Source: Schmidtea polychroa | Lineage: Eukaryota | DNA: 64,000 nucleotides | Reading direction: 5' to 3' | Assembly: GCA_044892525.1 (NCBI GenBank) | Contig: CM097885.1 | Span: 16,494,001 to 16,558,000, forward strand | Part shown: in pieces, positions 41,601-44,600 of the stretch | Layout of the letters: every line of letters starts with the position of its first letter | Numbering within the stretch: position 1 is the first letter of the stretch | Program-made: the position numbers and the translations under genes | Notes under the pieces: generated by a model | Told to the model about the DNA's origin: nothing | What the model saw: the letters and a program-made list of their open reading frames with translations, nothing else | Database searches by the model: none

Positions 41601-44600
41601 AAAATATTTCTCAACTTCAATCACTACAAATCAGACTGGTGATTTCATTGATTTCTTCAATAGTGTTGATTGATGAACGTCTATTTATGATGAGGTTTGC
41701 CTCTTAAAATCTGAAATTTTTTTGGATGTTGTCACTGGGTAAGAATTTAATAAAAATTTTTTTCCTTCCTTAGTTGACATTGTTCGAGACGTCTGTATGC
41801 CGAGGACTTCCTAGCAGGATTTAGATGATTTCTTTTTTGTGTTGTTTGCCAAGACTTATGTGCCATACGAACTAGATGTACAGTATATTTAAGTTCTTTC
41901 AAGATCTTGAAGTCGAGAACGCTGCTGATGAATGGAATATTCAGATAAAAATATTTCTTCTTTTATGTTTTGTTTTCCTAGGTCTTTTTGGATTTGAAAT
42001 CATTTTTTCAATGTCCTAATTGTGAAGGACTTTAATGAAGTTTCATTGCTGTTTATAGTTCCCCTTCTCTTCAGTACATCAATTAACCATCCTTAATTTC
42101 TCGCTTTTTTATGACATTTAATTTCTATAAGTATGGAAGTACTGATCTTTAGTATATTAGTATATGACAGTGGGGGTACGCGATGGATTTTTTGGGGGTA
42201 CCCAGGCCTTTTCAATCTTCTATTATCTAAATATTAAAAGATAAATAAAAAAAATTTAATTAGATTAAAATTTCTTATTAAAATTTTATTAATACAGAAA
42301 AATACAAATATAATCTTGTTTTTTATTTATTTTTTTATTTTTTATTTATAATGTTTATATTATTTTAATGTTAGACATCCGTAAAAAAATATTTTACTCC
42401 TTTACAAGTTAAAAATGCTAAAGGTTTATGGATGCAACTGTAAACAGTTCCTGTTTATGACGGTGTCTCCAGAGGCGAATATGATTTCTCATACGCCATG
42501 TTTACAAGTTTGCAGATATTTTTATTCTGTGATTTAGCGAATTTGCAAGTGATGTGATTTCCAGTGTAGCAGGGAAAGTATGCAATAGAGTTGAATCAGC
42601 AATATTGTATACTTACCTGGCACGAAGAGAAATCTCCGTGTCTCCTACATAGTACTGATGAGATCCAAAAGCTCGAAACTAGTCTACTATTGGGATTTTC
42701 ACTGGGTATCACAAAGCTTGTAATGTTTATATTATTTTAATGCTAGACATCCGTAAAAAATATTTTTATTTATTGTTTATATTTTCGAATCAATAATATA
42801 TTTTTAAAAATAAACTAAGTTTAAAAATCAAAGCATAAAGTAAATCATTTATATAAATGTAATTAAAATGTAAAGCAAATGTAAAGCAAAGGGGTACATT
42901 ATATAATGAAAATGATCAAGGTGGTACGCAGTACCAAAAGTTTGGGAAACACTGGTATAAGGGAACTCTTAATTTATAACATTCTTCATTCTCAATCACT
43001 TTGTCACGGTGCCTCATTTGCCCACCATATATTAATACATTTGAGTTTCCTAAAATTATAAATTGAAACATAAATGGACGATGTCCCTCACTGGCGTACA
43101 GTAGCATAAATATACAAGGTCTTCAAAATTTCCCACAAGAAAAAATCGGTTTATATAAAAAAGGTTAATTAAAAATCTGCGTTTTTATTTTGTTTTTTAT
43201 TGATTTTCACAACTTCTTTGATGTACTAGGATGAGTAATATATATTTAACAAATTCTGGAATAAAAATTACCGTTTTCTCACAACTGAATTTAGACGATA
43301 TATGGAAAAAGATTCTGTCCTCTCCGGCAATGATGTAGCTTACACCATAACCATCGTCAGCAACTGGACCAAAGCCTCCTCCAGCACAAATGAAATTTGG
43401 ATAACGGCTGGAAACAATAATTATCAACCAGCAACTACAACATCAGCATATTAATTTAACCCCTTCGTTATGAGCTATTATTTTAAGAATTTTTTTCTCG
43501 TAACAGTCATATGAGAACAAGTGAAACATATAATAATAATAATAATAATAATAATAATAATAATAATAATAATAATAATAATAATAATAATAATAATAAT
43601 AATAATAATAATAATAATAATAATAATAATAATAATAATAATAATAATAATAATAATAATAATAATAATAATAATAATAATAATGATAATAATAATAGTA
43701 ATAATAATAATAATAATAATAATAATAATAATAATAATAATAATAATAATAATAATATTAATAATAATAATAATAATAATAATAATAATAATAATAATAA
43801 TAATAATAATAATAATAATAATAATAATAATAATAATAATAATAATAATAATAATAATAGTAATAATAATAATAATAATAATAATAATAATAATAATAAT
43901 AATAATAATAATAATAATAATAATAATAATAATAATAATAATAATAATAATAATAATAATAATAAATAATAAATAATAATATATAATAAATAATAATAAT
44001 AAAAATAATAATAAAAAATAATAATAATATTAATAATAATTAATAATAATAATAAAAATAATAATAATAATAATAATAATAATAATAATAATAATAATAA
44101 TAATAATAATAATAATAATAATAATAATAATAATAATAATAATAATAATATACCTCAGATTAAGACGTTTTGATTGACCAAGAGGAGTCTGTGATGTACT
44201 CAATTTCCAAGGTTCGGTAAGAACCTTTTCCAGAAATTCACTCTTGAAATTAAGAAACTGACATACGACGTACATGCAAAATAAGTGCCGATCGACACCT
44301 CTGCCAGTCATGGCATCACGATATAATTGTTGATGATACTCTGCAGCTTTTTGGAAATAAAGTAGTTTTGTTGAACGCTTTTTACAATTATTAAATAGAT
44401 CAAATTCATTTAACTATAAATTACGGGAATTTTCGGATCATCAATTGATCTGACAGCTTCGCATACCTCAGCGCTACAGCTCCTCACAGTCTCCGTTCGA
44501 CCATCTCGAAATAATCGAGTCATTGAAGATTCATAAGTTTGACAAAACTTCCCATTCATCTTCCCAATAGGAAAGAAATAGAGTAATCTTTTTTATTAAA

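Follow-up and report, generated by a model that had tools for sequence, protein, structure and literature searches.

The window, by which we mean the whole 64-kb stretch of Schmidtea polychroa DNA that was analysed, contains two LTR retrotransposons, a Penelope-like element, a fragment of a Tc1/Sleeping Beauty-like transposase, a precursor of the planarian family mir-753, a single reading frame of 453 aa with a first Longin domain, and several copies of a short repeat in which a sequence matching the 5′ end of U1 snRNA precedes a hammerhead ribozyme on the same strand (table 1). The U1-like motif, ATACTTACCTGGC, occurs exactly at 42609–42621 on the plus strand and at 32746–32734 on the minus strand. 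Both sites had been listed in an earlier note made from the letters of this DNA, and we found both again, together with the one-mismatch version that it placed at 8667–8655 on the minus strand and the deletion that it reported in the copy around 8850, where the motif is missing after ATAC. Its estimate of about 63 nt between motif and cleavage site also agrees with our predicted cut after 42684, which lies 63 nt from the end of the motif and 76 nt from its first A. The hairpin with a GAAA loop that it quoted is that of the family majority and is exact in the 8667 copy, but it is not the hairpin of the copy at 42619–42642, which departs from the majority at three positions; this copy also has a mismatch in helix II. 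The 42609 copy is a worn member of its family. Three matches to the motif with at most two mismatches are present in the window, a number reached in 2 of 100 shuffles; because all three are copies of one repeat, they do not represent independent events.

Table 1. Features of the hammerhead repeat and other elements in the 64-kb window.
Feature	Positions	Strand	Remarks
Single reading frame, 453 aa	468–1829	+	first Longin domain, INTU/CCZ1/HPS4 family
mir-753 precursor	4382–4443	+	above the Rfam cut-off
5′-truncated repeat copy	8537–8696	−	one-mismatch motif, exact hairpin 2, intact hammerhead
Inverted partner copy	8715–8989	+	motif deleted after ATAC
LTR retrotransposon	12961–18108	+	near-identical terminal repeats; protease, RT, RNase H and integrase frames
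LTR retrotransposon	25184–31000	+	near-identical terminal repeats; protease, RT, RNase H and integrase frames
Short motif-less repeat copy	32164–32273	−	hammerhead core mutated
Repeat copy starting 9 nt before exact motif	32378–32755	−	runs into next monomer; subfamily A2-like
Penelope-like element	38918–40567	+	autonomous, young; RVT_1 and GIY-YIG; full frame 856 aa
Older Penelope fragment	41608–42153		inverted
Monomer, 372 nt, subfamily A	42346–42717	+	non-coding, strongly self-paired; fold z −4.27, 0/100 shuffles
Weak 6/8 match to host snRNA-promoter box	42543–42550	+	−66 from the U1-like A
5′ strand of helix predicted to close four-way junction	42553–42566	+	partner 42700–42713; MFE and centroid
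Hairpin 1, 5′ arm	42570–42587	+	donor-like, complementary to U1-like motif; 3 positions vary among subfamilies
U1 snRNA nt 1–16	42609–42624	+	15/16 in this copy, 16/16 in family majority; hairpin 1 3′ arm and hairpin 2 start
Hairpin 2, GAAA tetraloop	42619–42642	+	damaged in this copy
Type I hammerhead	42649–42690	+	predicted cut after 42684
Partial tandem repeat of monomer start	42718–42766	+	holds the usual family 3′ end about 45–54 nt past the cut
Tc1/Sleeping Beauty-like transposase fragment	52652–53323	−	below curated cut-offs

The hammerhead repeat and its genomic copies

The hammerhead core occupies 42655–42684 on the strand of the motif and has helices I, II and III of 6, 4 and 2 bp, respectively, the last of which carries a palindromic loop. 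Rfam model HH9 matches this hammerhead with 23.2 bits (E 0.0026), against a gathering score of 52 that the match does not reach. The same helix layout is described in passages of PMC4209133 for metazoan canonical type I hammerheads, whose 2-bp helix III makes a second copy necessary for cutting.

Ten monomers measured from cut to cut have lengths of 367–383 nt, and arrays with 378- and 383-nt spacing occur among the genomic copies. The monomer is non-coding, the longest ATG frames in two other monomers of the repeat being 47 and 55 aa, and it folds strongly. Early hammerhead surveys listed planarian repeats. The present repeat is abundant in S. polychroa: in the assembly of 781 Mb, a 21-mer spanning the motif and the start of the hairpin has 913 exact copies and the hammerhead core pattern has 1,423 matches, the first 100 of which are all of the motif repeat's type. 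The copies are dispersed and often 5′-truncated, with partial tandems and inverted pieces; their 3′ ends cluster 45–54 nt past the cut (46 of 91), and a microsatellite is found in 16 of 44 3′ flanks compared with 2.9% of random 40-mers from the window. Such 3′ ends and microsatellite flanks are given as insertion marks of Penelope-type elements in parts of PMC8557442 and PMC11167929. Judged by sequence, the motif-bearing repeat fits a non-LTR retrozyme with Penelope-type insertion marks.

The Penelope-like element of the window belongs to a family for which we examined 30 loci and in which 99 scored copies are 98–100% identical. This autonomous family ends in microsatellites, as does the hammerhead repeat. 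No repeat sequence common to the hammerhead repeat and the one autonomous Penelope family examined was found, and in 60 loci of 3 kb no Penelope frame is joined in sense to a hammerhead. The repeat of the window's element ends near 40620–41050, and its terminal repeat shows an apparent degenerate hammerhead core.

The pattern of motif plus hammerhead also has 3 metagenome and 19 viral matches, which lack the hairpins and which we take as chance: an Rfam match at an E value of 0.05 or less was found in none of 20 scanned loci, not one of the 19 viral matches combines the two stems, and two of the metagenome matches fall in apparent coding sequence. One metagenome contig (L075:924–989, minus strand) carries a site that looks hammerhead-like by eye; it lies between genes in a phage-like setting, and similar core words recur there. 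This site has no Rfam match at an E value of 0.05 and is unrelated to the S. polychroa repeat.

Identity with host U1 and predicted fold of the motif

Over 16 nt, the first of which falls exactly on U1 +1, the family majority is identical to the main type of host U1, and the identity therefore passes the 13 nt on which the earlier note had remarked; the U1 variant that is arranged in a tandem array agrees with the family majority at 18 of 19 positions. A search for shared words between both strands of the circular monomer and ten host U1, U2, U4 and U5 sequences returned this 16-mer as the longest, and none of 2,000 dinucleotide shuffles reached 16, the maximum being 15. Positions 12–16 sit in the closing helix of U1 and not in the part that reads splice sites, so that a splice donor on the opposite strand alone would not predict them, and the chance of their matching is about 2e-4 per site given the composition of the monomer. 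Among the three options offered in the earlier note, descent from U1 is thus the one favoured, because the identity begins at +1 and extends five bases beyond the splice-site-reading part. Its statement that the repeat is not itself a U1 gene also holds: there is no Rfam match to U1, no Sm-like string and no further U1 stem-loop. Sm-like strings are absent from 3 monomers and present in host U1 and U2, and the U1-70K loop is absent from the repeat. Nothing upstream of +1 aligns with host U1 and no U1 promoter sequence stands beside the motif; in a blast comparison with 12 host U1 loci the 5′ tip alone appeared among the matches listed. We consider it highly probable that the motif descends from U1.

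The host U1 genes, which have 42 matches in the genome, comprise at least five divergent types. Some begin with AAAC, one has an altered splice-site-reading stretch (ACTTACTTG), two have ACTAACCTG, and one type is arranged on another contig (C4) as about 30 copies in tandem. Such variant U1s could read variant donors.

We folded 8 of the 10 monomers in linear and circular form, and motif positions 3–11 are paired in all eight with the exception of A7, which is open in 6 of them. The motif is predicted to pair with the 5′ arm, some 40 nt upstream, of a hairpin (hairpin 1) with an energy of −22.6 kcal/mol and a z score of −5.91. Hairpin 1, hairpin 2 and an arm of the hammerhead are predicted to form a four-way junction that is closed by the tail behind the cut. 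Because 76 nt separate the U1-like A from the cut downstream, the masking arm is contained in every cut-to-cut monomer or circle; solely in RNA starting near +1 is the motif left open, and nt 1–10 are unpaired in the predicted fold of such an RNA. Among 56 copies of the same genome, 92.8% of cells pair as against 25–46% in slid controls. Pairing covariation in these copies is not above that of shuffles (54/500), and the hairpin therefore rests on its energy and on the second species described below. Two earlier candidates were rejected: the motif as a single-stranded linker came from the fold of a truncated piece, and whole-monomer folds show it paired, while base pairs between the motif and the tail that follows the ribozyme, also from a truncated fold, are gone in the whole fold. 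The proposal that the ribozyme releases an RNA on which a U1 mimic is displayed had missed the masking arm and is weakened by the predicted pairing in 8 of 8 monomers. Predicted to be folded away in the hairpin, the motif probably would not act as a free mimic of U1.

The arm opposite the motif is itself donor-like, with GT in 28 of 76 copies, and inverted pieces are common at insertions of the hammerhead repeat. The motif could accordingly lack U1 ancestry altogether if a donor-like 5′ arm had been copied in inverted orientation, its complement reading as U1 and masking the donor in cis. The GT form is derived, however, since the old subfamily has G at that place in 12 of 13 copies and the second species is without GT; moreover, the motif arm is perfect whereas the donor-like arm varies, and five further bases agree with U1. 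We regard this origin as unlikely.

Conservation, promoter and splice signals

To describe conservation within the genome we used 96 copies anchored on the hammerhead, taken from the first 35 Mb of the window's contig and from the window, five loci of which are segmental duplicates. For 64 of these the sequence continues for 30 nt or more upstream of +1, and among them departures from the majority amount to 49 of 704 cells (0.070) in the motif and 78 of 1,024 (0.076) in the 16 nt preceding it. An older subfamily has 140 pattern matches, of which 29 distinct loci were read and 13 are homologous on both sides; in these 13 copies decay affects 27 of 143 motif cells, a figure that counts two deletions. 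The motif thus decays like its flanks in genomic copies, which argues that copies once inserted are not under selection for it. Between the majorities of three subfamilies, nine diagnostic changes fall in the 66 nt upstream, three of them in the masking arm, as against none in the 30 nt from +1 to +30 (p 0.053).

A related repeat family is held by a second species, represented by contigs of runs X5 and X6 that are labelled as another organism, come from one study and are of RNA origin by our guess. Its hairpin type has no match with two or fewer mismatches in the S. polychroa genome. No change of at least 10% is seen at motif positions +1 to +7, +10 and +11; minor alleles of 10–22% occur at +8, +9 and +12 to +14, and +2 varies in clipped contigs. 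Changes are found at three positions of the 3′ arm of hairpin 2, at two positions of loop II and in the cleavage triplet, which reads GUA; hairpin 2 of this family also has G-A mismatches in tandem (L059:1380–1590). The part upstream of the motif, whose letters are a loose-end consensus of 3–9 contigs with an agreement of 0.72–0.77 and were counted by hand, aligns without gaps, and 12 of 27 inner hairpin positions differ with pairing kept, including two-sided changes. A low-depth family near the S. polychroa type is also present in runs X5 and X6 and may be a second subfamily or carry-over.

The contrast in conservation between motif and flanks, by which the earlier note proposed to judge the motif, is accordingly mixed. 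It is lacking among copies of the same genome; between species it is seen relative to the upstream flank, with at most 1 of 16 motif positions changed compared with 12 of 27 in the inner hairpin (p 0.014), and is lacking relative to positions +17 to +46, where 4 of 30 have changed (p 0.64). Because the downstream block is about as conserved as the motif, the motif is the 5′ edge of a conserved block and not a lone peak. The two helices of the motif show nine lineage-level changes, eight of them in the strands opposite the motif (p 0.02 by sign test, hand-counted and post hoc), and this skew is the best hint, at the level of sequence, of selection on the motif.

The same strand asymmetry would be expected if the monomer or circle were a switchable mimic, in which hairpin 1 opens and the motif pairs with a donor in host pre-mRNA or in helper Penelope RNA, thereby tying the retrozyme to chromatin or to the reverse transcriptase. 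A perfect donor would pair with the motif at −15.3 kcal/mol, more strongly than the motif's own arm as an isolated duplex (−10.0 to −13.0 kcal/mol); for the whole hairpin, however, the value is −18 to −25 kcal/mol. No excess of strong donors is seen around 44 insertions, the 14 kb 3′ of the cut holding 6 sense sites (0.43/kb) compared with 0.42/kb in the window, and inspection by eye showed no perfect donor in the 3′ repeat of the one Penelope family studied. We hold such a switch to be very improbable.

Host snRNA genes carry an octamer-like box, ATGCAAAT, at about −68 to −76. It is matched at 7 or more of 8 positions in 7 of 13 distinct U1, U2, U4, U5 and U6 promoters over a background of 3%, and it appears to be the host proximal snRNA promoter element. 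The repeat has a counterpart at −66 with 6/8 matches in subfamilies A and A3 and 5/8 in A2; by chance a 6/8 match is expected in 7.9% of cases in a 7-nt window. A genome-wide pattern search for the exact box, placed ahead of the motif at the distance found in U1, gave two true U1 genes and no repeat copy, nor did it show a source copy driven by a genuine ATGCAAA-type U1 promoter. With a matrix built from 12 host promoters, the site of the repeat ranks 1 of 742 in subfamily A and 4 of 756 in A2; the matrix itself, with a score of 117.9, is slightly above shuffles (104.6–113.7) and a control window (112.8).

These sites bear on a further possibility, namely that the monomer holds an snRNA-type promoter, that transcription starts at the U1-like A, and that the hammerhead releases a capped RNA of 76 nt with a free donor-pairing U1 end, the hairpin hiding only the copy in the circle. 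U1 identity and the conserved block both begin at +1, the best matrix site of the repeat lies at −70 and its box at −66, close to the −67 to −70 of the host, the first ten bases are open in the predicted fold of an RNA from +1, and an snRNA-type promoter is reported, in a passage of PMC2220036, for the hammerhead repeat newt satellite 2. Against these points, the box is incomplete in A and A3, still less complete in A2, which is the most homogeneous subfamily, and exact in no copy; the learned matrix scores little above shuffles; copy ends do not pile up at +1, where 1 of 96 copies starts; the Sm site and the U1-70K loop are absent; and snRNA promoters are established to lie upstream and not to require nt 1–16. 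We judge a start at +1 to be a minority possibility, rather unlikely on balance. A contig of run X11 that begins exactly at +1 was rejected as a start site, since a polymorphic site 30 nt further on makes its end an effect of the 31-letter assembly graph. In a broader form, the retrozyme would make use of its U1 identity either through such a capped 76-nt RNA or through unmasking on demand, pairing with host or helper donors while the complementary arm serves as an off switch; this, too, seems to us doubtful.

The opposite strand of the motif is a perfect 5′ splice site, and the earlier note had considered its use as a donor by an antisense transcript. This proposal finds no support, as no GT..AG or CT..AC joint is present among the contig matches listed, and among the loose ends listed for contigs of seven distinct runs none falls at the antisense donor position. 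A function of the minus strand more generally, with U1 binding to antisense transcripts or to a minus-strand replication intermediate, would predict retention of nt 3–11 including the unpaired A7 as well as a conservation edge near +1, and introns are frequent in Penelope-type repeats. It leaves the identity at positions 12–16 unexplained, however, and the G-U pairs, the GAAA loop and the hammerhead all belong to a plus-strand fold, so that with the splice joints and loose ends missing as above we consider it improbable.

Probable capture of the U1 tip and comparison with known systems

The reading that we prefer, to which we give a probability of about 0.45, is that the first 16 bases of host U1 were likely captured once, by template switching of a reverse transcriptase, in an ancestor of the retrozyme, and that, predicted to be base-paired, they are likely kept mainly as part of its fold. 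The earlier note is therefore borne out in part: U1 descent gains support, the displayed mimic loses ground and the antisense donor finds none. Template switches that add pieces of U1 or U2 to retroposons are described in parts of PMC4494074. A single switch would have placed U1 nt 1–16, perhaps 1–19, in the ancestral retrozyme, and the sharp edge at +1 would reflect a reverse transcriptase that ran to the capped end of U1. Tandem copies would be transcribed, cut by paired hammerheads and circularised, with a Penelope-like reverse transcriptase copying the circles back. The captured strand would have become the strand shared by hairpins 1 and 2 in the four-way junction ahead of the ribozyme, a role that would both slow change of the motif and hide it from splice sites. 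Capture, cleavage, circles and mobilisation are all steps that we infer. Several observations speak against retention through the fold alone: the motif strand has changed less than its pairing would lead one to expect, A7 is kept though unpaired in most subfamilies, and the subfamily-diagnostic changes end at +1.

Retrozymes are abundant in animals. In the present family, which belongs to a tractable group of animals, the tip of U1 that reads splice sites is found in two species, where both its place in the monomer and the arm that masks it are defined. If the tip is merely a structural relic, it would still represent capture of an snRNA into a ribozyme circle; an exposed tip would amount to a natural, ribozyme-made mimic of U1; and if the U1 identity is used, a selfish circular RNA with more than 1,000 copies would pair with splice donors of the host or of a helper. 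Full-text literature searches, covering titles and the starts of abstracts, returned no description of a U1-derived segment in a hammerhead repeat. The vehicle, a retrozyme, is thus known, and the U1 tip is the part for which we found no description.

Among the closest known systems are the metazoan non-LTR retrozymes (Cervera and de la Pena 2020, PMC7229834; Li, Clavereau and Pollet 2026, 10.64898/2026.07.22.740005), which as described there resemble the S. polychroa repeat in their short non-coding monomers, dispersed and tandem copies, canonical type I hammerhead, strong self-pairing and co-occurrence with active Penelope-like elements; the main texts of these two sources mention neither planarians nor an snRNA-derived segment, whereas the S. 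polychroa repeat has a U1 tip. Newt satellite 2 is likewise a hammerhead repeat tied to the machinery of snRNA genes, according to a statement in PMC2220036 that cites Coats, Zhang and Epstein (1994). Its link is a promoter, whereas that of the S. polychroa repeat is transcribed U1 sequence with a weak promoter match.

The terminal repeats (pLTRs) of endonuclease-positive Penelope-like elements, as presented in parts of PMC4209133, PMC8557442 and PMC11167929, are similar in having a hammerhead near the 3′ end with a short tail behind it, AT-rich or microsatellite targets, partial tandems and inverted 5′ pieces. The S. polychroa repeat differs from them in that it has no reading frame, a canonical and not a minimal hammerhead, and a donor consensus opposite to the ribozyme strand. 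The proposed capture has a parallel in SINEU and the U1/U2-headed Tx1 elements of crocodilians, for which passages of Kojima (2015, PMC4494074) describe a 5′ piece of U1 on a non-autonomous retroposon, propose a template switch and recognise no promoter. In those elements the copies begin at their 5′ end with the U1 piece, and a Tx1 LINE acts as partner; in the S. polychroa repeat, unlike SINEU, the piece measures 16–19 nt, is internal to a circularly permuted monomer, is predicted to be paired and is joined to a ribozyme.
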